Positions 1,765 to 15,767 of a stretch of 30,108 bases of DNA are shown here, piece after piece. The notes under the pieces are model-generated. The model was not told the DNA's origin and ran no database searches. It saw only the letters and a program-made list of their open reading frames with translations. Position numbers and translations under genes: made by a program. The DNA comes from a virus (lineage: Duplodnaviria > Caudoviricetes), in the IMG/VR virus record IMGVR_UViG_3300009095_000050, positions 1-30,108 of that record. One strand, written 5' to 3'. Each line of letters starts with the position of its first letter. Position 1 is the first letter of the stretch.

Positions 1765-1913
1765 CCGACCTTGAAAAACGCCGCTCCGATGTAGCTTTCT
1801 GGCAAAGAAAGTACGAAAGGGACCGTTCAAAGTACGCGAGGGGAATGCTTAAAAACGCTAGTGATAGGCTGAAACTGGCAGAGATTGAACAATATAACCA
1901 AGGAAAGAATTGA
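1761..1913 (+). CDS. 50-aa basic hypothetical protein (not in ORF track)
   Basis: MTDLEKRRSDVAFWQRKYERDRSKYARGMLKNASDRLKLAEIEQYNQGKN*. ATGA overlap upstream and TGATG overlap with the csf1 start, so it fills the gap exactly. Confidence 0.6.
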   Translation: MTDLEKRRSDVAFWQRKYERDRSKYARGMLKNASDRLKLAEIEQYNQGKN

Positions 1914-2566
1914 TGAACATGAAACATCCATGCGAAGTAATATACTATCTATCCTCCCAACCTATCTATGGTGACACGCAAGGTATCTGCAGGATTACAG
2001 GAAAGGAATCAACGGGTACGCCCTTTCACAAATGGGTTCGTGACACGTTTACAGATATTGGGAGCCTACATCCAGGTACGATTATCAGCAACGAAGCAAT
2101 GTTTTGTTTTGAAGAAGGTAGCGAATATTTACAGCAAAAGGCTGGCAAGGATAAGCCGCAGCGATTTCGTAATTACTCTCATTTTGTTTTGAATAATGAA
2201 TGGCACATGAAAGACAAAGGTCAGAAATCCGACATGTTAACACTTCTAGTTTCAAAACCTGAAATATGTGTGATTGCGGAAAGCGGTCAGCGTCATTTAT
2301 TATTTAAGCACAAGCCGGGCACTTGGCAGTTTGAAGATCAAACGATATATCCCGATGTTGATTTCTTAATGTATCTACACTCACTAGTATATTCATTGTG
2401 TTGCACATTCAGCATAGATGAAGTGTTATCCGGTCAATATTCACAACATCGAATTATAAAACACGGCGCTTCATTGTGGAGAGAGGCGGAGAGCAAACTA
2501 AAACAACACAGAGGCACTCCAATGTTTTCTTTATCATTATTTTTCGCGAAAGTACATCCGATATGA
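1913..2566 (+). CDS. csf1: Type IV CRISPR-associated Csf1 (Cas8-like large subunit)
   Basis: Motifs CRITG, TFTD..SL, RNYSHFV and CVIAESGQRHLLF (cf. the Csf1 SGQKH motif); first gene of the csf cluster. Confidence 0.8.
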   Translation: MNMKHPCEVIYYLSSQPIYGDTQGICRITGKESTGTPFHKWVRDTFTDIGSLHPGTIISNEAMFCFEEGSEYLQQKAGKDKPQRFRNYSHFVLNNEWHMKDKGQKSDMLTLLVSKPEICVIAESGQRHLLFKHKPGTWQFEDQTIYPDVDFLMYLHSLVYSLCCTFSIDEVLSGQYSQHRIIKHGASLWREAESKLKQHRGTPMFSLSLFFAKVHPI

Positions 2567-2835
2567 AAGATTTCACAGATAAGGAAATTATAACCTTAAT
2601 AACAACCTACAGACGTAAAGGAATTAAAGCATGTCGGGTTAATCCAGATCGATCAGATAAGAGCCTTTATGAAAAAGTCCGCCGCCTTAAACTACAAAGG
2701 ATTCCACGATGGAGTGAATCAGACCTAAACACTCTAATGAATAGCAATAACATTACAGATGCCTCACGTATCCTTAAACGCACAGAGAATGCTTGCAGAA
2801 TCAAAAAACATAGAATTAATAATTATGGAAAATGA
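2563..2835 (+). CDS. Tandem Myb/SANT-like helix-turn-helix DNA-binding protein (90 aa)
   Basis: ATG 2563 overlaps the csf1 TGA. Two repeats: FTDKEIITL...RSDKSLYEKVRRLKL and WSESDLNTL...RTENACRIKKHRI. Strongly basic. Confidence 0.6.
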   Translation: MKDFTDKEIITLITTYRRKGIKACRVNPDRSDKSLYEKVRRLKLQRIPRWSESDLNTLMNSNNITDASRILKRTENACRIKKHRINNYGK

Positions 2836-3226
2836 AATAACCCAACAGCGAATCGGGGAAGAATTACTATTTCCTTTATTCCGATGCCTCGATGAAGGCT
2901 ACAAAAAAAAGTACGTGAAGGATATATGGGAGCAGTTTGAAAACAATATTCGTGCATCAGCATACACGTCACGCCTCACAAAATTCTTCGAAAACATCAC
3001 ACGATCAATGCCGATAACACTAGAACGGCAATACGCTGAGCCTGTTTTGCAAATTATTCAAAGCGGGCTTGATGAAGAGGTTCTAACGTGGCTAAGAAAT
3101 GAAACAACCTATCTTGTACTATTAGCACGAATGAGAAATGAAGAACGTAAAGAATCACTTAAAAGTAGGCAACAGGATTTATTTTCAGAACCAGAACCAT
3201 TATCAAATAATAACGAAACATTATGA
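2825..3226 (+). CDS. cas11: Type IV-B small subunit Cas11 (Csf4-like)
   Basis: All-helical 133 aa starting MENEITQQ, with IWEQFENNIRASAYTSRLTKFFE and VLTWLRNETTYLVLLAR. Lies between csf1 and csf2, as in IV-B loci. Confidence 0.75.
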   Translation: MENEITQQRIGEELLFPLFRCLDEGYKKKYVKDIWEQFENNIRASAYTSRLTKFFENITRSMPITLERQYAEPVLQIIQSGLDEEVLTWLRNETTYLVLLARMRNEERKESLKSRQQDLFSEPEPLSNNNETL

Positions 3227-4170
3227 GAACCATTTCTTTTGAAGGTGTAGCAACAGCAATTACATCTATTATTCACAATGGCGGAGAGAAAAACGGGATC
3301 GCCTCCATGCTTCGTCGGGAAAAGTTCGTACAACCTAACGGCAAGGTAAAAGAAGTTCCCGTAATAAGCGGCAATGCTATACGTGGTATTTTGCGGGACG
3401 TTGGGATGTATGACATGCTGCAAAAAGTTGGGTATGGAGTGCAGGATGACGGCACCGTAAAGGGCTTGCCATTATCCGCTTTTTACTTCCTGTTTTCAGG
3501 TGGAGCATTAAGCAGCACAGGTGAAGCCGGAATTAATGTAGATCGATTTCGTAAAATGAAAAATCTAATTCCTTTGATTGGTCTATTTGGCGGCGCTATA
3601 GGCAATGCGATTATGCCAGGCAAATTAAAAATCGGGAAGCTGATGCCTATATGCAAAGAGACATTACACCTTTTGCCTGAAAAGTATCAGAATGAAGAAG
3701 CGGAAAGCATTTGGGATTATTGCCAAACCGAAATGTACACCCGAAGAGACGATGAAAAAAACGATAAGGTGCGCGGCATGATTGATGAAAATGTCAGAGC
3801 TTTGCTAACAGGCGGAACCGCAAAAGTGGATATAACAAAATCGTCCACAGCACAACAGATGATGTATAGGAATGAAAGTCTTGCAGCGGGGACGCAATTT
3901 TACTGGAAGGTTACACTAGAGGACGCAAGCGACATCGAATTTGAAGCCTTTGTAAATACGTTAATTGTTTTCAGTAAAGCTCCGTACCTAGGCGGACGAT
4001 CAGCCGTTGGTCATGGTGAAATTTCAATTAAAATGGACAAGTGGATTGAGATCGACAGTAGGAGCAACCTGGAAGGCAAAGAGGTTGGGTTGCCGTTACT
4101 GCAATCTTATTTCAATCACCTTGAAGATAAAAAGCAAGATATTCGAGCAATGTTAAATGCGATTGTATGA
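3223..4170 (+). CDS. csf2: Type IV CRISPR-associated Csf2 (Cas7 backbone RAMP)
   Basis: VPVISGNAIRGILRD, FLFSGGAL, PLIGLFGG, YTRRDD, QMMY..E.LAAGT and the C-terminal G-rich loop LGGRSAVGHG. Confidence 0.92.
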   Translation: MRTISFEGVATAITSIIHNGGEKNGIASMLRREKFVQPNGKVKEVPVISGNAIRGILRDVGMYDMLQKVGYGVQDDGTVKGLPLSAFYFLFSGGALSSTGEAGINVDRFRKMKNLIPLIGLFGGAIGNAIMPGKLKIGKLMPICKETLHLLPEKYQNEEAESIWDYCQTEMYTRRDDEKNDKVRGMIDENVRALLTGGTAKVDITKSSTAQQMMYRNESLAAGTQFYWKVTLEDASDIEFEAFVNTLIVFSKAPYLGGRSAVGHGEISIKMDKWIEIDSRSNLEGKEVGLPLLQSYFNHLEDKKQDIRAMLNAIV

Positions 4171-4649
4171 GCATAGACAATTCTGACTTTCGATTAAAGG
4201 TTGATGTGCGTCAAAAAGGATTGTCCTTGGTTCGCCCCCCTTATAACGTGCTGGAATTATATGCTGGAACCGGAATGCTAACCAATCACCTTTGGGCAAA
4301 GGTCGCGGAAAGGGTGTTATCAATCGAAAAGGATCCTCATAAATTCAATAGCACATTTAAAAATGTTACTGCGATCACAGACCATAATGCTAATCACATC
4401 GATAAAGCTAAAGACTTCAATGTTATAGACTGCGATGCTTACGGGATGGTACTTCCTGTTGTCCTGAAATGTATAGAGGCGGCAAAAGAAAACAGCATCG
4501 TGTTTTTTACAGAGTTCAACCCAGTCAGGTACAAAAACGATTGGATTGGCGAGACTGTTAAGGCGGTATCATCACACAAAAAAGTAAAAGGCTTTTGGTT
4601 TCATCAGGCTAATAACTCACAAGTAATTTACGCTTATGCACAACTTTAA
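4167..4649 (+). CDS. Small class I SAM-dependent methyltransferase-like protein
   Basis: Motif I VLELYAGTG, acidic motif II SIEKD, and FNVIDCDAYG resembling the D-x-D-P-Y-G motif IV of Trm1-like/amino-MTases. Overlaps the csf2 stop (ATGA) and the csf3 start. Confidence 0.75.
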   Translation: MSIDNSDFRLKVDVRQKGLSLVRPPYNVLELYAGTGMLTNHLWAKVAERVLSIEKDPHKFNSTFKNVTAITDHNANHIDKAKDFNVIDCDAYGMVLPVVLKCIEAAKENSIVFFTEFNPVRYKNDWIGETVKAVSSHKKVKGFWFHQANNSQVIYAYAQL

Positions 4650-5298
4650 TTTTCAGCCACTCCGCATACGCGCATACTTACAAACTGGTGTTATCAGCGA
4701 TCAGTTTTTGCCTCTCGATAGCGTCATCTATGCGCAGTATGTTCGTGAAAAAATGGGAGAGCGTGACTACTCTTTACCTCTTGAAAACACAATTAAAGAA
4801 GGACAGCAGATCAATTTACCGTTCAGGAAAGCGAATGTTAAAAACGATGCTTGGTTTTATAAATGCTCGTTCGCGCAATGGCATGAAAAGACAATAGAGG
4901 ATCAGCAAACATACAGTAAACGATTTGATTTAATCCGAAGTGATCTTGCTGATTTCGGTAAGAAAAAAGCAACTGTTGATAACCAGCGTGGTTTTTATAA
5001 AAGCTATCATGTGAAAGTCTATTACAGACATGCCCCTTACATTGAATGGTATGCTGACGGCGACAAGAAAGAACTGGAACGGGTACTAAAATTCTGTACT
5101 CATTTAGGTAAAAAAACATCACAAGGCTGGGGCGTTGTATTAAAATGGCAAGTAATTGAATGGATAGAGGATTGGAGCGTTAGGGGCCCGGGTAACAGGC
5201 TAATGCGGAGTGTCCCGGCCATGAATGGCGTTTTGTACGGAATCCGGCCATCGTACTGGCTTCCACGTCATCAATTTAAGAGTTTGCTCCCAATGTAA
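4636..5298 (+). CDS. csf3: Type IV CRISPR-associated Csf3 (Cas5-like RAMP)
   Basis: PLRIRAYLQTGV...LPLDSVI N-terminus, IEWYADGD, G-rich loop HLGKKTSQGWGVV and C-terminal GIRPSYW. Confidence 0.88.
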   Translation: MHNFNFQPLRIRAYLQTGVISDQFLPLDSVIYAQYVREKMGERDYSLPLENTIKEGQQINLPFRKANVKNDAWFYKCSFAQWHEKTIEDQQTYSKRFDLIRSDLADFGKKKATVDNQRGFYKSYHVKVYYRHAPYIEWYADGDKKELERVLKFCTHLGKKTSQGWGVVLKWQVIEWIEDWSVRGPGNRLMRSVPAMNGVLYGIRPSYWLPRHQFKSLLPM

Positions 5299-5339
5299 GA
5301 TTGATGTAAGGGAAACTTAAACAATATTTTAGTAAAGGC

Positions 5340-5370
5340 TTGCGTATATCGTATATACAGGATATATTTA
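5340..5370 (+). promoter_or_regulatory. Bacteroidota-type sigma promoter with an overlapping near-palindromic operator
   Basis: cTTG-N19-TATATTTA matches the -33 TTTG / -7 TAnnTTTG consensus with one mismatch in each box. The spacer contains GTATATcGTATATAC. Confidence 0.55.
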
Positions 5371-5393
5371 CATCATAATTAAACGCTAAAGCA

Positions 5394-5804
5394 ATGTTCA
5401 TCGCACGTCAATCAAGCCACATTCAGGAAGACATCAAAAGAAACTGGTCGAGCTGGAATTTTGGTCAAGAGGGTTTTAATGGCACGTATGATGAATTACA
5501 CACTGCAATTAATGAGGCTATAGAATCCGATAGTTCTTTTTCAATCTCTGGGTTTGAATTGTGGGGTAGCGACATTAAAAACGCTGATATCCGCGAATTG
5601 TACGCAGGTTATTGGGTGCTGGTTGACAATGTTAATGGTCACGGAAAAGGAATTTTTGGGACAGAATTGAAAGCATCCACACTTAGCGAGGCAATTCAGG
5701 AATCAGCAGACGCCCAGTATTGGGGTGAAGGAGTTCGCTTTGATGCATCAGACGCGAAACTGGTTTACTCAAATAAAGATATTCACATTTTTGAAATTGA
5801 CTGA
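5394..5804 (+). CDS. Acidic hypothetical protein (136 aa)
   Basis: Clean ORF downstream of the promoter; D/E- and aromatic-rich; no recognisable family. Confidence 0.7.
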   Translation: MFIARQSSHIQEDIKRNWSSWNFGQEGFNGTYDELHTAINEAIESDSSFSISGFELWGSDIKNADIRELYAGYWVLVDNVNGHGKGIFGTELKASTLSEAIQESADAQYWGEGVRFDASDAKLVYSNKDIHIFEID

Positions 5805-5941
5805 TGAGAAAGATTATCGACATACCCGACAACATTGTAAAAGACCTTAAAAAAATGGCCGTGGACGCGGATTTAGATTTGAAGAATTATATTCAAAATC
5901 TGCTCGTTCTGCACGTTCAAAAAAAGGGTAAGGCAAAATAA
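5804..5941 (+). CDS. Ribbon-helix-helix (CopG/Arc-like) DNA-binding protein, 45 aa (not in ORF track)
   Basis: MRKIIDIPDNIVKDLKKMAVDADLDLKNYIQNLLVLHVQKKGKAK*: beta strand RKIIDI followed by two helices. TGATG-coupled to the upstream gene. Confidence 0.7.
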   Translation: MRKIIDIPDNIVKDLKKMAVDADLDLKNYIQNLLVLHVQKKGKAK

Positions 5942-5971
5942 CCCACTCACCTACAGCGTGACATCTTCCGT

Positions 5972-6382
5972 TTAATTCACTACAGCAATCCCGGCAAGGA
6001 TAACCCCGAGGATCACGGCCCCGGTTCTTTGGAACCTCAAGGAGCGGTTTTGTTTTTTCAATTCGTGGTTCTCTCTTTCAAGCGATTCGGAAACTTTTTC
6101 GTGCTGTTGGGAAATTTGTTGGGCTATTGATGTTTTGTTTCTCTCGGATTGCAGCAAGTCTTCGTAATCCCTGTAGATTGTTATTCTTTCGCTCTCGAGC
6201 AATTCTACCTTTCCTGACAGTTCATTAATCAGCGTGTCTTGCAATAGCTTCTGATAGGCCATCGCGTGGATAACCCTACTCTCTTGAATCGGCAGGCAGT
6301 GCACATCAGATTCCTGCGCGTAGGATCTCCCTGCGAACACTGTCAAGGTCAGTAGAAGTATTATTTTTAAAACTGACTTCAT
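5972..6382 (-). CDS. Signal peptide + coiled coil + C-terminal TM protein; spanin-like lysis accessory
   Basis: N-terminal MKSVLKIILLLTLTVFAGRSYA, central heptads, C-terminal GAVILGVILAGIAVV; last gene of the lysis region. Confidence 0.5.
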   Translation of the reverse strand: MKSVLKIILLLTLTVFAGRSYAQESDVHCLPIQESRVIHAMAYQKLLQDTLINELSGKVELLESERITIYRDYEDLLQSERNKTSIAQQISQQHEKVSESLERENHELKKQNRSLRFQRTGAVILGVILAGIAVVN

Positions 6383-6647
6383 CTATTTCTCCGCGCAATC
6401 GCGCTATGGTGATTTCCTTGCGTTTTAAGGCATCCGCGTGGGCAGCGCTATCTTGCTTCATCTTTTTCCTGATCGCAGCGCTGACGGAATCCTGCGCAGC
6501 CCTTAGCGCTTTTAATTCCTCGATTCGTTTCTGATATGTTTCCCGCTCCCGTTCATACTGTGAAACGTCTACTTTGTCGCCTGGAGCAATGAGCCATCCC
6601 AGCAGGAACATTGCGGCGCCAATGATATATGACAGGTACTTATTCAT
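6306..6647 (-). CDS. N-terminal TM + coiled-coil protein, i-spanin (Rz)-like
   Basis: YIIGAAMFLLGWLIA TM followed by a long charged helix; overlaps the next gene by 77 nt. Confidence 0.55.
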   Translation of the reverse strand: MNKYLSYIIGAAMFLLGWLIAPGDKVDVSQYERERETYQKRIEELKALRAAQDSVSAAIRKKMKQDSAAHADALKRKEITIARLRGEIDEVSFKNNTSTDLDSVRREILRAGI

Positions 6648-6921
6648 TTTCCTTCCGTCGGCGGCGTTCGAACATCAACTCCATCTTATCAAGTCGTAGC
6701 TCCATTTTCTTGTCAAGCTTGTCGATAGATGTTTCCATCTTGTGCTCAAACTTTTCCAGGATGTTGTAAATCCGCTGAAGCTCACTATTGACACGCTGGT
6801 CGTTTATGTTGTTTTCCTTTATCGACTGCTCGTTTGCGTAAATTCGTTTGGTGAGGAAAACAAGCCATCCAAAAATGACTGTCCCGATGGTGATGATTGG
6901 TATAGCTACACTTTGTTCCAT
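6640..6921 (-). CDS. Single-TM + coiled-coil protein (holin/XhlA-like)
   Basis: Start at MEQSVAIPIITIGTVIFGWLVFL (ATG 6921); C-terminal KME..IDKLDKKMELRLDKMEL repeats and a basic tail. Confidence 0.55.
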   Translation of the reverse strand: MEQSVAIPIITIGTVIFGWLVFLTKRIYANEQSIKENNINDQRVNSELQRIYNILEKFEHKMETSIDKLDKKMELRLDKMELMFERRRRKENE

Positions 6922-7286
6922 TGCAGTTGCCGGACGGAGATTATTGATAAGACAAGGAATTTGGTCACTGTGATTCCTATCCCCAAGGTAAAAATATAAA
7001 ACCACGGGCTGTTATAGGTCAGCAGGTAGTCGATAAATTCAACTGCTTGCAGCCAAAACCACGTGGTTAATATTGGGCGGAATGAAATTAGAAGGGTGGT
7101 GAATGCGTATGCAAACACCATCATTGACACGTAATGGCAAAGAAAATACACATAAGTCTGAATATTCAGCTCAATGTCATAGAAAGGGAAGGGGTCGAAC
7201 GTGTGCGCTGAGAATGGTATTAACGTCCACGCCTCTCGTATGGCTAAAGCCGCCAAAATTAGAATTATGCAATTCCTTTCAGCCAT
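6906..7286 (-). CDS. Multi-pass membrane protein (about 4 TM)
   Basis: 126 aa with several hydrophobic segments; overlaps both neighbours. Confidence 0.65.
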   Translation of the reverse strand: MAERNCIILILAALAIREAWTLIPFSAHTFDPFPFYDIELNIQTYVYFLCHYVSMMVFAYAFTTLLISFRPILTTWFWLQAVEFIDYLLTYNSPWFYIFTLGIGITVTKFLVLSIISVRQLQWNKV

Positions 7287-7392
7287 TTCCTCCCGGGGGC
7301 TTTGGCGGTGGCGGGGGTGTGTTGTCTGGTGCTGATGCCGGGGCCGGATCTGTTTTTGGCTTAGGCTTTTTGGTTTTGTCGTTCTTTGCCAT
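7279..7392 (-). CDS. 37-aa Lys/Pro-rich peptide (not in ORF track)
   Basis: MAKNDKTKKPKPKTDPAPASAPDNTPPPPPKPPGGNG*. A-rich upstream context; the stop overlaps the next start by 8 nt. Confidence 0.5.
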   Translation of the reverse strand: MAKNDKTKKPKPKTDPAPASAPDNTPPPPPKPPGGNG

Positions 7393-7555
7393 AAAGTTTG
7401 TTTTTAATCGCCTCAATTTGTTTTAACTGCTCACGGTTCGCCGCTTCCATTTCCCTATTCCGTAAAGTGTGAACTCTCACACGATAAGTTAGGACAGAAA
7501 GCCAAACGACACAGACACAAAAAAAGGCTATCAAAAATTCCACTCCGACAAGCAT
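7361..7555 (-). CDS. Small N-terminal TM protein
   Basis: 64 aa; FLIAFFCVCVVWLSVL TM followed by a charged helix. TAATTTTG (-7-like box) lies 3 nt upstream of the ATG. Confidence 0.5.
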   Translation of the reverse strand: MLVGVEFLIAFFCVCVVWLSVLTYRVRVHTLRNREMEAANREQLKQIEAIKNKLYGKERQNQKA

Positions 7556-7715
7556 TTACAAAATTAGCCCGGGGATTGGTTTCTTTTTGTTCACATTAGC
7601 CTGATTCATGTCATGCGTAACAGATGTAACATATCAGGGTAAAAGTAGTCAAAAAGCCGGGTTATATTCCAGCGTTTAAGGTACAATTAATCGACCAACA
7701 TTTTACCCCTTATTT

Positions 7716-8141
7716 CTAAGGTCGCTTTTCCGCGTTCGTAATCTCGAGCGTGAACTTGTCCGGCATAAAGTCTGTCAGCTTCTTTAGCGTCTTTGCCGTG
7801 TTCAAAATATCCAATACACCATCTGTGTTTATGTCCTGAAGGATTTCACCAGGGAGTATACAGCCTAAAATATGACTTGTGTACGTGCCTGGGTGGAACA
7901 AAATACCGGAACGTCCAGGCACATCCTGAACACGAAAGTACACGTACGCGCGCGTAGAAGAAGGTCCTTCCTTGTGAACTTCGTACCGTCCCTCCGGGAT
8001 GCAGCTTATGTTACGTTCGTTCCCTTTCCACGGCAGTTCAAGCGTTTTACATCGGAACACAACCAAGCCAGTGTCGTCGATCACTTCCAAGTCACCGTAC
8101 GTCGCTTTTGCGCGATACCAGCGTTTCAGTTTTAGTCTCAT
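7716..8141 (-). CDS. DUF5675-like protein, putative endolysin (L,D-peptidase-like His/Cys)
   Basis: TLELPW..N...ISCIPEG.Y, VPGRSGILFHPG and GCILPG motifs; immediately downstream of a holin-like gene. Confidence 0.75.
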   Translation of the reverse strand: MRLKLKRWYRAKATYGDLEVIDDTGLVVFRCKTLELPWKGNERNISCIPEGRYEVHKEGPSSTRAYVYFRVQDVPGRSGILFHPGTYTSHILGCILPGEILQDINTDGVLDILNTAKTLKKLTDFMPDKFTLEITNAEKRP

Positions 8142-8422
8142 TCTACCTTCCCCTTTCCAATCAAATCTTTAATAGGCTTTAAGAAATAATCATATCCTAA
8201 AACAGCGATGCCGAACGAAATAAGAAGCTTCCACCAGCTATCGACCGTCGCGGCGTCATCGAACACGATCTGAACGATAGCTGCGAGTAGCGCGACTGCC
8301 AGCGTGATCCACTTTGGATTGGTCTTCGGTTTGGCTAGTGCTTTGATCAGTTCCACGGCCACGGTTACTGCAATGATGTAGGTTGGGAATGTGAATCTTT
8401 CAAAGAAAACAATAAAATCCAT
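8138..8422 (-). CDS. Putative holin (3 TM)
   Basis: 94 aa with three hydrophobic segments and a basic C-terminus; ATGA-coupled to the lysin. Confidence 0.65.
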   Translation of the reverse strand: MDFIVFFERFTFPTYIIAVTVAVELIKALAKPKTNPKWITLAVALLAAIVQIVFDDAATVDSWWKLLISFGIAVLGYDYFLKPIKDLIGKGKVE

Positions 8423-8432
8423 ATTCGTTAGG

Positions 8433-9278
8433 TTAAGATGGCATTTGATTGAGCGAGGCCTGGATACCGGTTTTCAACCTGGTAACTTCTGCCTGCGCGG
8501 CATTTCGCTGGCTTGTTAGGGTTGAAATTTGCGCCTGTAAAGACGTGATTTGCGCCTGTGCTGCTGTCAACTGCTGCTGAATTTCGTCACAGTTTGTCGC
8601 TGGTGGCGCTGGTGTGGGCTGGGCTAGACTGAGCTCATTTATAACGAACTGTAGCGCCTGATCGTTGGACGTGTTTGCGTTGAAGGCCTTGGTCCATGCT
8701 TCGTAACCAGTGTTCGCGAATGACACAAGCGCCATGCTTCCCGGAAACGAGTTATTATACTTGTTCACCGTATCCTGATGCAGCGAGATTGGGTAACGAG
8801 TATCGTTCACGCCGTGGAAAGCAAGCCCCTTCACAGATGTCCACTTGGATGGGATAGAACCGGTCCGTTCACTGTATCCGGACACCGCGATCACAAGTTT
8901 AATGTCGTCCGCGTCTTTGTTTTCGCTGAGGATGTTGTACATATCGACGGCGCCCCGTCCCAGTCCGACCAACACGATGTTTTTTGGATTGTACCTTTTG
9001 CGCATCGCCGGGATGATTGTATTCAGAATGCCGTGCAGCGTGGTAGTGTTTGTCTGAAGTGCGAAAATGTTAAATGGGTAGTTCTGATTCCGCGCGAACT
9101 TCGGCCACCAGTCAATGGATTCAAGAACATTTAACTGTGACCCGTCTGCCGAGCCTTTCAGTTCCTCCGGGTGCAGCGCAATGACAAGTGTATCCGATCC
9201 TCCTGGAGCAAGATATTCCCTGCCTGTGAAGCTCGACGCAGTGCCGCCGGTGTAGTTTTTGACGTCGTTGATAATCAT
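8433..9278 (-). CDS. Alpha/beta-hydrolase-fold protein, apparently catalytically inactive, with C-terminal coiled coil
   Basis: Paralog of 9275-10030. The nucleophile elbow reads GLGRG (no Ser), FHGVND is retained, the His position reads GYEAW, and a PTPAPP linker precedes Q/A heptads. Confidence 0.7.
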   Translation of the reverse strand: MIINDVKNYTGGTASSFTGREYLAPGGSDTLVIALHPEELKGSADGSQLNVLESIDWWPKFARNQNYPFNIFALQTNTTTLHGILNTIIPAMRKRYNPKNIVLVGLGRGAVDMYNILSENKDADDIKLVIAVSGYSERTGSIPSKWTSVKGLAFHGVNDTRYPISLHQDTVNKYNNSFPGSMALVSFANTGYEAWTKAFNANTSNDQALQFVINELSLAQPTPAPPATNCDEIQQQLTAAQAQITSLQAQISTLTSQRNAAQAEVTRLKTGIQASLNQMPS

Positions 9279-10030
9279 GCGATCAGGGTTTGAAGGTTTG
9301 ATTTAGCTGTCTGGAAGTCTTTCAGCTTCTTGTCCCGCTCGGAGTGTGTGAACATTTCAATAACCTTTTGCGCTGTTCTGTCCTTCGCAATGTTTGTGTT
9401 GAAGGCATACGTCCACGCGTTGTGTGCCCGGTCGATCAGGGTGTTGAACTCTATGCTTCCCCCGGCTTCATTGTACGCATCCACAAATGATTTATGCCCA
9501 GAAAACGCAACGGTAGGATCGGCCGTTCCATGCCATGCGATGCCCGGAAGCTTGACCATGCTGGAAATACTGCTCGTGGATGCCGAACCGCAGATTGCCA
9601 CAAAGCCCTTTAACAATTCCTTGCCGGGGGGATCAATGATAAGCCGGTACGCGCCATAATTGCCCATACTGATACCGCCAACGATTATGTTTTGATAGCC
9701 GTACTCATCCCGCAGGAACGGCAGAATTCGCGGTTTGAGGAAGTCGTAACTCTGTGCGAAGTCACTATGCTTCTTCACCTGCACGGCGATAATATCAAAA
9801 GGGTATTCGATACTTCCTGTAATGGTCGAACCCCACGGGCGTTTGCCGCGCGCGAACCTGGGAAAGCCTTCCAGCTTCTCTACGAGGTCAATCTTTGAAC
9901 CATCAATAGGCCCCTCCTCACCTACACCGTGATACCAAACAACAACGTTTTTGCTGCCGCCAGTGTATCTCATGTAGTTCATCTTTATGCCGTCGCCGAT
10001 GTCCTTTTGTATGTGCTGTGTTATGTTCAT
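9275..10030 (-). CDS. Alpha/beta-hydrolase (esterase/'predicted peptidase'-like) with intact Ser-Asp-His triad
   Basis: WYHGVGEEG oxyanion region, GISMG nucleophile elbow, WHGTADPTV (Asp) and AHNAW (His). Confidence 0.8.
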   Translation of the reverse strand: MNITQHIQKDIGDGIKMNYMRYTGGSKNVVVWYHGVGEEGPIDGSKIDLVEKLEGFPRFARGKRPWGSTITGSIEYPFDIIAVQVKKHSDFAQSYDFLKPRILPFLRDEYGYQNIIVGGISMGNYGAYRLIIDPPGKELLKGFVAICGSASTSSISSMVKLPGIAWHGTADPTVAFSGHKSFVDAYNEAGGSIEFNTLIDRAHNAWTYAFNTNIAKDRTAQKVIEMFTHSERDKKLKDFQTAKSNLQTLIA

Positions 10031-11970
10031 ATTAAAGTATTATTTAGCGCATAATCTTTGGCCGCTTCGAAGAACCTACGTCCTTGTTCAACCATTCCAT
10101 CTGGAGACGTAAAATGAGTGCCATCCGTGAGTGGAATGTCTGCTGTAGAGAAGTAGTGACCTCCTTTATAATAATCAGAATATGCTGGATAATCAGTCAA
10201 GAAGTCATCAACAGCAGCTTGTAGGTCTTGAATAATGTCATCCCTGTAATCACGAGAAGGACTGAACGGATTATCAATTAATGATACAAAAACGTGAGCA
10301 TCAATCTGTTCTGGTTCAATTACACCATCGGCAACTAGTAGGTCAATCTGGTCTAAAATCTGTTTTATAACCTGCTGGAAATCATGCTTGCAATTTGCGT
10401 TACCCACCTGCGCGTCAGCCTCTGCGCCACGCCACAAAAAGCCTTTATAGATAGGGCGGAATCCGTACTTAAATTTGGTGTACTTCACCGCATAGTAAAC
10501 GGCGTTTTTTGCATTGAACAGCATTTCATTCGTAGATGCTGAGTTCCAGTCTTGACCGCTTGGGTCTTCAAACAAAGGCGTTCCTCCGGTAGCATATTTT
10601 GCGAGGAATATGTTTCTACCAATATATTCACTCATCAAGTACGAAAACTCATCATCTGGTCCTAACGCAGTTGTCCCGGCAGTATTCAGTAGACGGGCCT
10701 CAAATTTATACGTACTATTAACAGCACCAGTTCGCATGTTGCCATAATATCCATGCTCACTGCCATACTTCGAAGGAATTGTCCCCACCTGATGGCCAGC
10801 CATGTTAGATTGACCATGCGCAGAATAAATCAATGCATCCCCTCTTATATCCAGGTCCTCAGAACCAGCGAGAAGGTAAGCGTTGATATATGAAAGTTGG
10901 GATGAGTCGGGTATTATATCCAACAACAATACGTGCTTAACAAGACCATCAACCATATAATTTGCTCCGTAGAACATTTGCAGGTCTTGGAAGTGATTAG
11001 ATGTGCTGTTGGGATAGGCATTGTTCGTGCTGCTTATTTCTGTCCCATCACGATACACCTTTAGCGTTGTCCCGTCATAAGTAATTACAAGGGAGTGCAT
11101 CGTACTCAATGTAAAAAAGTTATCCAGCACAACATTTTGAGGCGGCTGCCCACCAACCCCTCTATTGATGGAAACAACCAATGCCATGCTTCGACTCTGA
11201 GCTGCTCGATTGTCATAGTTACACACTATTCCAACGTTGCCTGTACTTGTTGAGGTTGAACATAATTGATAGGTTAAATCAATGCTGTTATATATGCCTA
11301 TCCGCATGGCGATGCAAAATGACGATCCGTCATGCAGGAATTTAAACGTTGTTTTATCAGCAGCCTTCGCATATCCAGCGGACGCGGGGAAATACATCAT
11401 TAACCCATTGAAGCAAGGAACTCCAGAATTCTGCTTTGTTAACGTCATCGCATATGAATCGTTCGTGGTGATGTTTCCGAGTTCACTACCAAATAACCCA
11501 GTTGGATTTTTGCCATCCGATGTCCTGCCGTTTATCCAAAGCCTAAGATTAGAATTGAATACATCAAGAGGACTTGAAAGTTCGTCAGCAGCCAAAAACG
11601 ATCTAGGATTGTTACGTGCTGTTGTAATGATGTATTTTTCACTGCCAGGGTCTCCTGCATACTCAAAAACCCTAACGTAATAAGTTTCCCCAAGACTAAG
11701 ACCAGTTACGTTAAAAGTACTACCCGAGTCGTTATAAACTACGTACCCATCACCAATATCGCTACCAAATCCGAAAATTGGATTAGCTAAATAACTTGTG
11801 CCGTCCGTTGGTAAATCTTCAACCGGCGCGCCTTCACGCATTACTACTAACCTCCTTGTACCAACGCCTTTTGTAAAAGAGATGGTGGCAGTGTTTTCGG
11901 TGACATTCGTAAACACTAGATCGTAGGCCTGTGCAATTTTTTGACTCAACAAAGCATGAAAGAAACTCAT
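10027..11970 (-). CDS. Receptor-binding/tailspike protein: FN3-like + LamG/ConA-like + SGNH sialate-O-acetylesterase (SASA/CE6-like) domain
   Basis: N-terminal VTGLSLGETYYVRVFEY (FN3); HSLVITYDGTTLKVYRDG (LamG); HGQSNMAG, KYATGGT, GFLWRGAEAD and DGTHF (SGNH esterase blocks). Confidence 0.75.
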   Translation of the reverse strand: MSFFHALLSQKIAQAYDLVFTNVTENTATISFTKGVGTRRLVVMREGAPVEDLPTDGTSYLANPIFGFGSDIGDGYVVYNDSGSTFNVTGLSLGETYYVRVFEYAGDPGSEKYIITTARNNPRSFLAADELSSPLDVFNSNLRLWINGRTSDGKNPTGLFGSELGNITTNDSYAMTLTKQNSGVPCFNGLMMYFPASAGYAKAADKTTFKFLHDGSSFCIAMRIGIYNSIDLTYQLCSTSTSTGNVGIVCNYDNRAAQSRSMALVVSINRGVGGQPPQNVVLDNFFTLSTMHSLVITYDGTTLKVYRDGTEISSTNNAYPNSTSNHFQDLQMFYGANYMVDGLVKHVLLLDIIPDSSQLSYINAYLLAGSEDLDIRGDALIYSAHGQSNMAGHQVGTIPSKYGSEHGYYGNMRTGAVNSTYKFEARLLNTAGTTALGPDDEFSYLMSEYIGRNIFLAKYATGGTPLFEDPSGQDWNSASTNEMLFNAKNAVYYAVKYTKFKYGFRPIYKGFLWRGAEADAQVGNANCKHDFQQVIKQILDQIDLLVADGVIEPEQIDAHVFVSLIDNPFSPSRDYRDDIIQDLQAAVDDFLTDYPAYSDYYKGGHYFSTADIPLTDGTHFTSPDGMVEQGRRFFEAAKDYALNNTLI

Positions 11971-13661: not shown

Positions 13662-15767
13662 TTAATTCAAATTAATTGTTATCGTATTACCGTTTTGAAC
13701 CCCGTACACAGTAGTATAGTACCACTTCGCCCCATCTGCGGCAGTCACTGGCACTAGCGTTGTGGTTCCCCCAGCACCAATCCGCGTCACGTTCAAAGAA
13801 GCATTACCCCCGCCATTCGGTATTAAGTACACCCATAGTCCAATAGCGCCTAACTGCATGTTACGGCCCATCAAGAACTGGCCAGGCATGACAGGAAATT
13901 CACCTGTAAGAACCATGATGGACGTAGCATTGCTCACTTCCCCGCCAGGAGCGCCTACAAATACTTGAGTGATCAGGTACGTACCAGTATTGTTATTTAT
14001 TGAAAATTGAACGTTAACCTGAGATGGCTGAACCACCGAGACAGATAGTGTATTTGACGGATCGTTAATGTTTACAAGCGTGATAGTACCCGGTCGAGTG
14101 GCTCCGGAGTTGTTGACGCTGAATGTTACATTTATTGACTTACTGCCTGTTTGTATTGCGGCTGGCACTGATATCCATGGTACATTTGATAATGCCTGCC
14201 ATTGCGCGGTCGCATCCGCGGTTACGGATATAGATTGCACCGACAAATTACCATTCGGGAGCAAGAATACTGTAGGGTCAACACTGATAAGGTCACCATA
14301 CTCTGGAACAGGTTCCTCCTCACCGGCCTCCTGCTCAAACGATATTTGAGCCGTAACCCCTGCAATGTCCTCGCTAAACGCCGTTAAAATAGCCGTCTTA
14401 CCGTCCGTGTATAGGTTTTCAGCTACAGTAAACTCTATATAGTCATCGTTCTCAAACTCATTTACGTCCGCAGTAATCCAGTCGGGAAGGGACGTGAACT
14501 TGAATTTGCTTGAACTATTGCTGATGAATTGAGCAACCAATACATCTCCTTCCGCTGGTATTCCTGTAAACGAGGATGGATTAAAGCTTGCGGTAATCTC
14601 AACGTCAATAACTGAAAGGAACTTACGACGGTCGTTTTTCTGCCGCAGGTTTATTTCAAAATTATTCAGATCTGAATCGTCAATGTTTTCGGTGTTCCCG
14701 AAGTCGGCAGGCCTCCACCAGTAGTCATTGATCAGAATTGAATCGTGACCAAATACGACATTCAATTTATCGACCACCCAAGAAGGCTGGTTGTAGGCCT
14801 TAAAAGTGAGTTCGCGATATGCTACCGCCTTGAGCTGCTCCCTGATTCCAAAATCATCATTGTAAACCTCCATTTCCCCGGAGGTTGTCAGCACATTGAA
14901 GTTTGATTTTACCCGTATCACGTTCGTCCAATCGGACAGATACAAATACTCCCAGGTATCGAAGTCCTCAAATTCACCTTCATGGCGATATCCAATAGCC
15001 AGGCTCTTTTGATGGAATTCCTGAACGTCAATCGGCTCGGATGAATAGGAAACGACGGTATTTAAATTTCCTCCCGTTGTCGTAATTCCGAACTCCATAC
15101 GAAGTACAAAAATCCCCTCAAGTGTGGAAAGATCGACCGGCACGGAATACAAATCGGCATCGCGTTCGTTGTATCGGACCTCCACAACGCCATCGACAGG
15201 GGAATTTATCGCGTAATCCTTGTCGGTTAAAAAGCCCTCAGCCTGCAGTTCCGGCACCCAAATAACACTATCAACGAAAGAGAACTGCTCCCCCGTGCCA
15301 CCAACATTGAAACGAACGACACTTCCATTCCCTACCCTGTCCACCAACTGCCCGGGCAATCGTCCTTCGTGATTGGCGGCAATGGTAGGTACTTCAAAAT
15401 CCTCGTCGCTGTACTCGTTCCCGGTGTCGAAGTAAATGAATAGCTTCCCGCCAACGCTGACGAACTTAGCATCTGCCCGGTAATATTTACGGGTGAACTG
15501 TTTGGCTATCGTGGGGTTGTAACTCGCGACAGTGTTCCATGTGAAACAATCTATAACCGAAAGCTTTGAAATAGGGAAATTCGTGTAAAACTGAGGTCGG
15601 AGCGGGTCTTGCTGTTCAAAAGGCTGGTAAAAATCGCGCTCCATCATGCCCATATGTACCGCGTCTGCAAATCGCTGTTGGTCAAAACTAGCCCGGCGAT
15701 CAGTGTTTCTGTCGTCTCTGGTAAACTTGACAGCGTTTGCAACCGGAAATTCAATAATAAATTCCAT
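13662..15767 (-). CDS. Baseplate/tail-tip protein with two BACON-like Ig domains
   Basis: FNPSSF..PAEGD...PDWIT...FTVAEN and ISVDPT...WQALSNVPWISV...VTFSVNNSGATRPGTITL match the BACON pattern. Confidence 0.7.
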   Translation of the reverse strand: MEFIIEFPVANAVKFTRDDRNTDRRASFDQQRFADAVHMGMMERDFYQPFEQQDPLRPQFYTNFPISKLSVIDCFTWNTVASYNPTIAKQFTRKYYRADAKFVSVGGKLFIYFDTGNEYSDEDFEVPTIAANHEGRLPGQLVDRVGNGSVVRFNVGGTGEQFSFVDSVIWVPELQAEGFLTDKDYAINSPVDGVVEVRYNERDADLYSVPVDLSTLEGIFVLRMEFGITTTGGNLNTVVSYSSEPIDVQEFHQKSLAIGYRHEGEFEDFDTWEYLYLSDWTNVIRVKSNFNVLTTSGEMEVYNDDFGIREQLKAVAYRELTFKAYNQPSWVVDKLNVVFGHDSILINDYWWRPADFGNTENIDDSDLNNFEINLRQKNDRRKFLSVIDVEITASFNPSSFTGIPAEGDVLVAQFISNSSSKFKFTSLPDWITADVNEFENDDYIEFTVAENLYTDGKTAILTAFSEDIAGVTAQISFEQEAGEEEPVPEYGDLISVDPTVFLLPNGNLSVQSISVTADATAQWQALSNVPWISVPAAIQTGSKSINVTFSVNNSGATRPGTITLVNINDPSNTLSVSVVQPSQVNVQFSINNNTGTYLITQVFVGAPGGEVSNATSIMVLTGEFPVMPGQFLMGRNMQLGAIGLWVYLIPNGGGNASLNVTRIGAGGTTTLVPVTAADGAKWYYTTVYGVQNGNTITINLN

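Follow-up and report, generated by a model that had tools for sequence, protein, structure and literature searches.

A recurrent type IV-B-like csf cassette in which a short methyltransferase clade stands in place of CysH

The window, that is, the whole stretch of 30,108 nucleotides that was analysed, is a tailed-phage fragment whose genes include those for terminase, portal, capsid and tape measure, and the phage contig is estimated to be 39% complete. It encodes an operon in the order csf1, a small basic ORF, cas11, csf2, a methyltransferase (MTase) gene and csf3 (Table 1), and all four Cas genes of this cassette match type IV models. The window csf1 is 47-54% identical to the csf1 of the nearest operons, and small basic ORFs are also found in the operons L001, L002 and L056. 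Among the 26 window ORFs scanned on this 39% complete contig, no Pfam match to DinG, Cas6 or adaptation genes was found, nor any CRISPR array at the window locus. PF01507 gave no match in the 30-kb record, and neither did an HMM of the csf-type cysH. With cysH missing, the cassette is a type IV-B-like variant rather than a canonical IV-B member. A promoter scan performed at chance level (16 matches vs 16.3 expected by chance).

Table 1. Features of the csf-MTase cassette, in window coordinates.
Feature	Position	Strand	Remarks
Whole csf-MTase cassette	1889..5290 (approximate limits)	+	Single gain/loss unit
csf1 (type IV Cas8-like large subunit)	1913..2566	+	PADLOC Csf1_0_IV, E 1e-9
Small basic protein, probably helix-turn-helix type	2563..2835	+	Weak match to PHROG 323, D5-like regulator, E 0.005
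cas11 (type IV small subunit)	2825..3226	+	PADLOC Cas11_1_IV, E 1e-22
csf2 (Cas7 backbone)	3223..4170	+	TIGR03115, E 4e-20; PADLOC Csf2_0_IV (typeIV_Cas7), 5e-78
Short csf-linked class I MTase, Trm1-like catalytic half	4167..4649	+	Slot held by cysH in relatives
Invariant K11 and R15, N-terminal helix	4197..4211	+	Invariant in 34/34 rows of the alignment
Motif I LELYAGTG, predicted SAM binding	4251..4274	+	G34 invariant, G36 nearly so; strand 1 of the model ends here
Motif IV VIDCDAYG, aligned to Trm1 VDiDPFG	4422..4445	+	D88 and D90 invariant; D90 the predicted catalytic residue
Strand-5 FFTE, aligned to Trm1 TATD	4503..4514	+	T115 invariant
csf3 (Cas5)	4636..5298	+	TIGR03116, E 7e-15; PADLOC Csf3_0_IV (typeIV_Cas5), 8e-44

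The csf-MTase cassette is gained or lost as a whole. In a strain and junction comparison that drew on contigs of four of the 23 listed sequencing runs, contigs of runs X2 and X3, from two studies, join position 1888 to 5291 with 27 other letters between them; the joint in two runs means that there is a related phage without the whole 3.4-kb cassette. The 136-aa gene that follows the cassette and its upstream region (5291-5804) vary among related contigs and match no family, and one contig joint skips 5465-5762. Further along, the structural module ends with minus-strand genes at 8433-11970, two of them alpha/beta-hydrolase-like and one for a protein that combines laminin-G and SASA esterase; a Bacteroidota host is suggested by the BACON domains at 13662-15767.

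The MTase gene was first noticed by reading the sequence, and the initial annotation described it accurately: the ORF encodes 160 residues with LELYAGTG (residues 29 to 36), SIEKD (52 to 56) and VIDCDAYG (86 to 93), and it overlaps both RAMP genes, sharing 4 nt (ATGA) with the end of csf2 and 14 nt with the beginning of csf3. It is under purifying selection: one near-identical strain contig differs from it by 11 substitutions, of which 9 are synonymous where 20% would be expected (p 2e-5). The csf2-MTase and MTase-csf3 junctions are each bridged by contigs from other studies, so that the gene order is no misassembly. An artefact and a chance insertion of the gene were both rejected.

Structurally, the protein is a single domain. 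An AlphaFold2 model built from a 34-sequence alignment (pLDDT 94.1) shows a seven-stranded Rossmann core and no second domain, in agreement with the remark that no target-recognition domain is evident. The Rossmann core, the glycines of motif I (G34/G36) and E54 after strand 2 identify a class I SAM-dependent methyltransferase; AlphaFold and Foldseek, initially proposed as the way to settle the fold, thus confirm the class and do not pick out a subfamily. In VIA-align the protein matches Trm5b (Z 15.8, rmsd 2.5, 149 residues aligned), fibrillarin chains are among the tied matches, and Trm1 is outside the top 50 of the list. In Foldseek, Trm1 ranked second among near-ties. Small-molecule and protein methyltransferases appeared at tied scores in both searches.

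Profile comparison separates the two halves of the domain. Profiles were built for Trm1 (25 rows), for KsgA, Trm5 and RsmD (15 rows each) and for TcmP (8 rows). Over the whole domain, RsmD (E 4e-10), Trm5 (1.5e-8), Trm1 (8.7e-8) and KsgA (1.4e-7) all match and Trm1 is not singled out, and TcmP (TIGR04474), with one of its 8 rows possibly mis-picked, reaches E 0.09. The SAM-binding half matches the RsmD, Trm5 and KsgA profiles, while the catalytic half (residues 76 to 125) matches Trm1 at E 7.6e-6 and KsgA, Trm5, RsmD and TcmP at 0.1 or worse. Here DxDAYG is aligned on the DxDPFG of Trm1 and the strand-5 FT[DE] on TATD, with Ala at the position of the Trm1 Pro. The resemblance to a Trm1-type D-x-D-P-Y-G motif that had been claimed at the outset stands for the catalytic half. 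Two family assignments were rejected: true Trm1 (PF02005), with 16.6 bits against a cut-off of 27 for a protein of 160 residues without the C-terminal domain, and KsgA/Erm (PF00398), whose 26.9 bits (cut-off 24) cover only residues 23 to 92 and whose catalytic half gives E 0.1. The best Pfam and NCBIfam matches are nucleic-acid methyltransferases.

The second Asp of motif IV is the catalytic residue of Trm1. According to PMC9957541, Trm1 is a tRNA enzyme that methylates guanine at N2. Since the catalytic half of the MTase matches Trm1 alone among the five profiles, guanine-N2 methylation is the predicted chemistry, and the sequence comparison suggests this as its product. A non-polymer substrate (a Csf or host protein, a free nucleotide or a signal molecule), with the Csf complex as scaffold or sensor, would be in keeping with the tied scores of small-molecule and protein methyltransferases, and radical SAM (L014) and phosphatase (L026) genes found at the slot in other operons could act on nucleotides. 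We consider it unlikely, as the match of motif IV and strand 5 is specific to Trm1 and the best family matches act on nucleic acids.

Seven residues (K11, R15, G34, W43, D88, D90 and T115) are invariant across the 34 sequences, which range from 21 to 86% identity, and K11 and R15 remain nearly invariant when the long family described below is included. This constancy, in particular that of G34, D88, D90, T115, K11 and R15, makes it very improbable that the protein has no catalytic activity and serves the Csf complex in a structural or SAM-sensing role, as its very short length and the change from Pro to Ala in the Trm1 motif might suggest; the Ala of motif IV is, moreover, common to the long family.

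A profile search recovered 54 proteins among 1.84 billion representatives, and the family divides into two forms. The short form comprises 21 rows, or 16 distinct loci with the window included, once the duplicates L043, L045, L052, L057 and L145 are dropped. Genes of the csf type adjoin the short MTase in all 16 distinct loci, in four gene orders; the MTase lies between csf2 and csf3 in 12, after csf3 in three and after csf1 in one. ParB, a radical SAM gene and a csf-type cysH were found in none of the 16. These loci are fragments, and 7/16 end less than 0.2 kb from the operon or inside it; because the contigs are incomplete and cut this close, a cysH may exist elsewhere in the genome. PF01507 is absent from the three viral records that were searched whole (10-32% complete).

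The long form has a different setting. In its 88 loci, which include the best 80 of 170 from one locus search and retain near-copies, a ParB-like gene lies directly upstream of the MTase in all 88, a radical SAM gene lies within 3 kb in 83, and a csf gene lies within 3 kb in none. Terminase genes follow the module in the loci inspected. The two forms are homologous (hhalign E 1.7e-28), and in a quick tree of 97 rows, which samples 31 of the 88 long loci, the short form makes up one side of a 99* branch; this side holds 50 rows, 34 of them without known genomic context. From motif IV to the C-terminus, short proteins have at most 78 residues and long ones at least 93, and in the model of the long form strand 5 is followed by three additional helices, an insert that is absent from the short form after the strand-5 FFTE. 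The median net charge is +1 in the short form (35 rows) and +10 in the long form (102 rows, a large share of them cut back to the HMM envelope). The description of the MTase as a stripped-down catalytic domain thus acquires a concrete meaning, namely that the basic three-helix insert of its long relatives is missing. Likewise, the concern raised in the initial annotation that homologues might mostly occur away from csf genes is borne out for the wider family, with its 88 ParB-linked loci, but not for the short clade, where the proposed count of co-occurrence with csf genes, 16/16, came out stronger than had been suggested.

Other searches delimit the distribution of the family. No match to the MTase was found among 50,697 GenBank phages, and a csf2 search of the same set returned Skermania phage SPI1 as its sole match. 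Viral scans with A1 and A7 gave no match. No fusion of a Csf protein with the MTase was seen among 7,999 scored longer-protein candidates, a weak search. The ParB-like gene, the long Trm1-like MTase and the radical SAM gene form a common phage module (L059-L144, L147 and L002:1152-3031), a candidate phage DNA-modification pathway; a literature search found no paper that combines these components.

The position taken by the MTase is that of cysH. Two reviews (PMC8175902, PMC7038947) describe cysH as either strictly conserved or close to invariant among IV-B systems and suggest that CysH is recruited by the IV-B complex for nucleic-acid modification; the 2025 classification places CysH 'typically' in IV-B and calls its role enigmatic (PMC12669027). 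A cysH-like gene is present in 37 of the 39 distinct viral contigs found with csf2, and in 16 of the 39 it separates csf2 from csf3, contrary to the initial statement that these two genes are normally adjacent. All seven nearest csf2 relatives (55-70% identical) carry cysH in the MTase slot. The short MTase occurs in 0/39 of these contigs, which is no unbiased frequency, since the L041/L042 clade, which bears the MTase, escaped the patterns used to search for csf2. What is observed is a genuine IV-B-like variant that recurs and in which a dedicated clade of methyltransferases takes the place of CysH.

Phylogenetically, the MTase-bearing cassettes do not hold together. The window csf2 is 40-47% identical to that of the nearest MTase operons, and in a quick tree of 50 rows it is sister to the cysH-bearing L003 (99*). 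In AU tests on 30 chosen loci, a single clade of the 11 MTase cassettes was rejected with csf1 (p 1e-8), csf2 (0.002) and csf3 (0.012). A narrower test of the window with six near MTase cassettes, a group chosen after the tree had been seen, rejected their union with csf1 (0.012) but not with csf2 (0.29) or csf3 (0.25). Rejection of a single MTase-bearing clade implies that the slot was exchanged more than once. The existence of a variant with a methyltransferase in this slot shows that CysH is no fixed part.

Further enzymes are encoded at or near this slot. Two csf operons without cysH carry other genes after csf3, namely a radical SAM gene (L014:11585-13126) and an ORF whose DSGAF motif was read as TGT-like and which has no Pfam match (L030:7401-8123). 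Between cysH and csf3, L026:11613-12538 encodes a SpoU-family methylase (PF00588, E 1e-8) and a DSP-type phosphatase, and L027:12144-12560 contains a SpoU-like ORF similar to that of L026. In the MTase operon of L146, a Dam-type (D12) DNA adenine methylase lies directly 3' of csf3 (9166-10092). A phage-type PAPS-reductase gene lies 125 bp after csf3 in L051 as part of an insert of about 1.1 kb (3663-4792); it was rejected as a part of the cassette, as L057, which is 99.97% identical, has no such insert and the csf-cysH HMM gives no match to the gene.

Phage methylases often act alone, and the MTase might be co-regulated cargo: it would modify nucleic acid by itself or jointly with some other partner, and its place in the cassette would reflect an anti-defence purpose common to both parts. 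The Dam-type methylase next to csf3 in L146 fits such an arrangement, as does the lack of any Csf fusion in the weak search above. We nevertheless regard cargo as a fairly unlikely explanation: the MTase lies within csf operons in all 16 loci, in four gene orders and in distant csf clades, it excludes the csf-type cysH, and it lacks the basic insert and is nearly neutral in charge.

The operons themselves offer few clues to a guide. No CRISPR array was found in nine operon regions scanned, no Rfam family matched in 13 sources near operons, and no tRNA was detected in 19 loci. No RNA run was among the sequencing runs listed. A 57-nt repeat at the start of L056 was rejected as an array, being by eye a leucine-rich-repeat coding sequence. 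Four MTase operons do encode Cas6e, Cas6f (Csy4) or Cas6 (L053:1480-2040, L054:4491-5024, L055:4171-4629 and L056:820-1404), which hints at a processed RNA, although no array was seen in the sequence available for these four. The long csf2 of L056 (1380-2702) matches both Cas11 and Csf2 models and so is a Cas11-Csf2 fusion, and the long csf2 of L146 (6740-7999) looks the same by eye. On the DNA side, 18 of 46 csf1 tails match a sliding-clamp-binding pattern; these were rejected as support for a DNA target, as 12 of these matches fall within the cas11 frame, 11 on its F(V/I)xSxC segment, and three coincide with a conserved helix. A clamp-binding-like QQDLF is present in the window Cas11 tail (3175-3195), and clamp-like peptides (QLSLF and QKSLW) occur at free csf1 ends, the csf1 ends concerned being those of L047, L042 and L051.

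Some cassettes lie close to DNA packaging genes. The ParB module of L002 lies 3.5 kb from a cysH cassette (5749-9051), with the terminase gene between them. Both this csf cassette and the MTase cassette of L041 (1798-4948) are located between terminase and portal, within the packaging module, a neighbourhood that is plausible as the place where the MTase may have been captured.

The explanation that we prefer, and consider somewhat probable, is that this minimal SAM-dependent MTase is an interchangeable base-modifying enzyme of the csf cassette, delivered by the Csf complex. Csf1, Csf2, Csf3 and Cas11 would assemble on RNA, as the solved IV-B complex does. The Csf filament would then supply the binding and specificity, bringing the small MTase to a nucleic acid that it may bind poorly alone, and the enzyme would methylate the N2 amino group of a guanine in the nucleic acid so presented. 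As the trees are unrooted, we can only infer that the long ParB-linked form is ancestral and that the enzyme changed its partner from ParB to Csf. Such a mark might benefit the phage by countering host defence or elements that compete with it.

Delivery by the Csf complex leaves two kinds of target. In the RNA version, which forms part of the probability just given and is doubtful when taken separately, the guanine would be methylated in Csf-bound RNA or in host tRNA, rRNA or crRNA, with a stabilising or silencing effect. Trm1 is itself a tRNA enzyme (PMC9957541), the solved IV-B complex, as PMC7937560 describes it, binds heterogeneous RNA and is type III-A-like, and an SpoU RNA methylase (L026, a cysH operon) and Cas6-family genes (L053-L056) occur in csf operons. 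Against RNA, the closest relatives lie behind a ParB-like gene in every one of the 88 loci (including the best 80 of 170) and next to terminase in the loci inspected, a locus context that PMC4738411 and PMC13229309 tie to DNA modification, and the MTase model has no RNA-binding domain. Kinship with an enzyme of the ParB/terminase locus shifts the odds somewhat towards DNA, so that within the preferred explanation DNA is slightly favoured over RNA as the target. The long relatives of the MTase, which lie behind ParB-like genes, provide a parallel to delivery by Csf: a DNA dioxygenase is activated on dsDNA by a phage ParB, and exchange of an insert frees the dioxygenase from this requirement (PMC13229309).

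In its most far-reaching version, Csf delivery would mean that array-less IV-B complexes write base modifications under RNA guidance by means of an enzyme that can be exchanged, and that the present variant is a natural RNA-guided guanine-N2 DNA methyltransferase; we put this forward tentatively, as fairly improbable in such a complete form. A ParB-dependent methylase would have lost its binding insert and docked on the Cas7 filament. A literature search found no paper on a guanine-N2 mark in phage DNA. If this version is true, it would yield a programmable methylase together with this guanine mark, and, if the enzyme is guided at all, a base methylase of 160 aa carried by a Cas scaffold would offer a lead for tool development.

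The role of IV-B is an acknowledged open question, and reviews single out the CysH-like gene as central to it. A methyltransferase in the CysH slot fits the idea of a modifying enzyme delivered by the complex. The MTase variant makes the IV-B target testable, since labelled SAM would tag the substrate and the modified site would point to the guide RNA. We found no paper describing the pairing of MTase and csf genes, which subscription papers, bioRxiv supplements or the data files of PMC7038947 may list. The word 'methyltransferase' is absent from the main texts of PMC8175902, PMC7038947 and PMC12669027 and from two supplements of the last. The methyltransferases treated in a Bathyarchaeia virus preprint and in PMC10734277 are unrelated to the csf-linked MTase.

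Among known systems, the phage ParB-MTase-radical SAM module (L059-L144; a general locus type covered in PMC4738411) is the source of the closest relatives, with which the MTase shares the DNS...K...R start, the DxDAYG motif and a terminal Tyr strand. The long form has the basic three-helix insert and ParB upstream, whereas the short form has neither. The DndDE and CxC ABC-ATPase systems offer another likeness, a scanning core in which the PP-loop enzyme DndC, of the CysH family, is replaced by methylases in some loci; unlike the csf cassette, however, their core consists of an ABC ATPase and an RHH protein rather than a RAMP ribonucleoprotein, and the methylases are cytosine DNA methylases (PMC10853773). 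With Trm1, the tRNA (guanine-26-N2) dimethyltransferase (PF02005; PDB 3axs and 2dul), the MTase shares the class I fold and can be aligned in motif IV (DxDAYG to DxDPFG) and in strand 5 (FTD to TATD), but the Trm1 family profile spans 376 positions against 160 residues, and the MTase lacks the C-terminal domain, has Ala for Pro and a canonical motif I, and is phage-borne and csf-linked. The box C/D ribonucleoprotein is an analogy in organisation, as fibrillarin is a compact class I methyltransferase that takes its specificity from the particle; it differs in its unrelated scaffold, its 2'-O chemistry and the lack of a Trm1-type motif IV. The cassette most resembles type IV-B itself, as represented by the complex of Mycobacterium sp. 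JS623, the only one for which a Csf2/Cas11 filament on RNA is known (PMC7937560): Csf1, Cas11, Csf2 and Csf3 are all present, the cassette is borne by a mobile element, and it has no array, no DinG and no adaptation genes. It departs from IV-B in that four related MTase operons carry Cas6 and, above all, in that cysH is absent from the window operon and an unrelated methyltransferase fills its slot.
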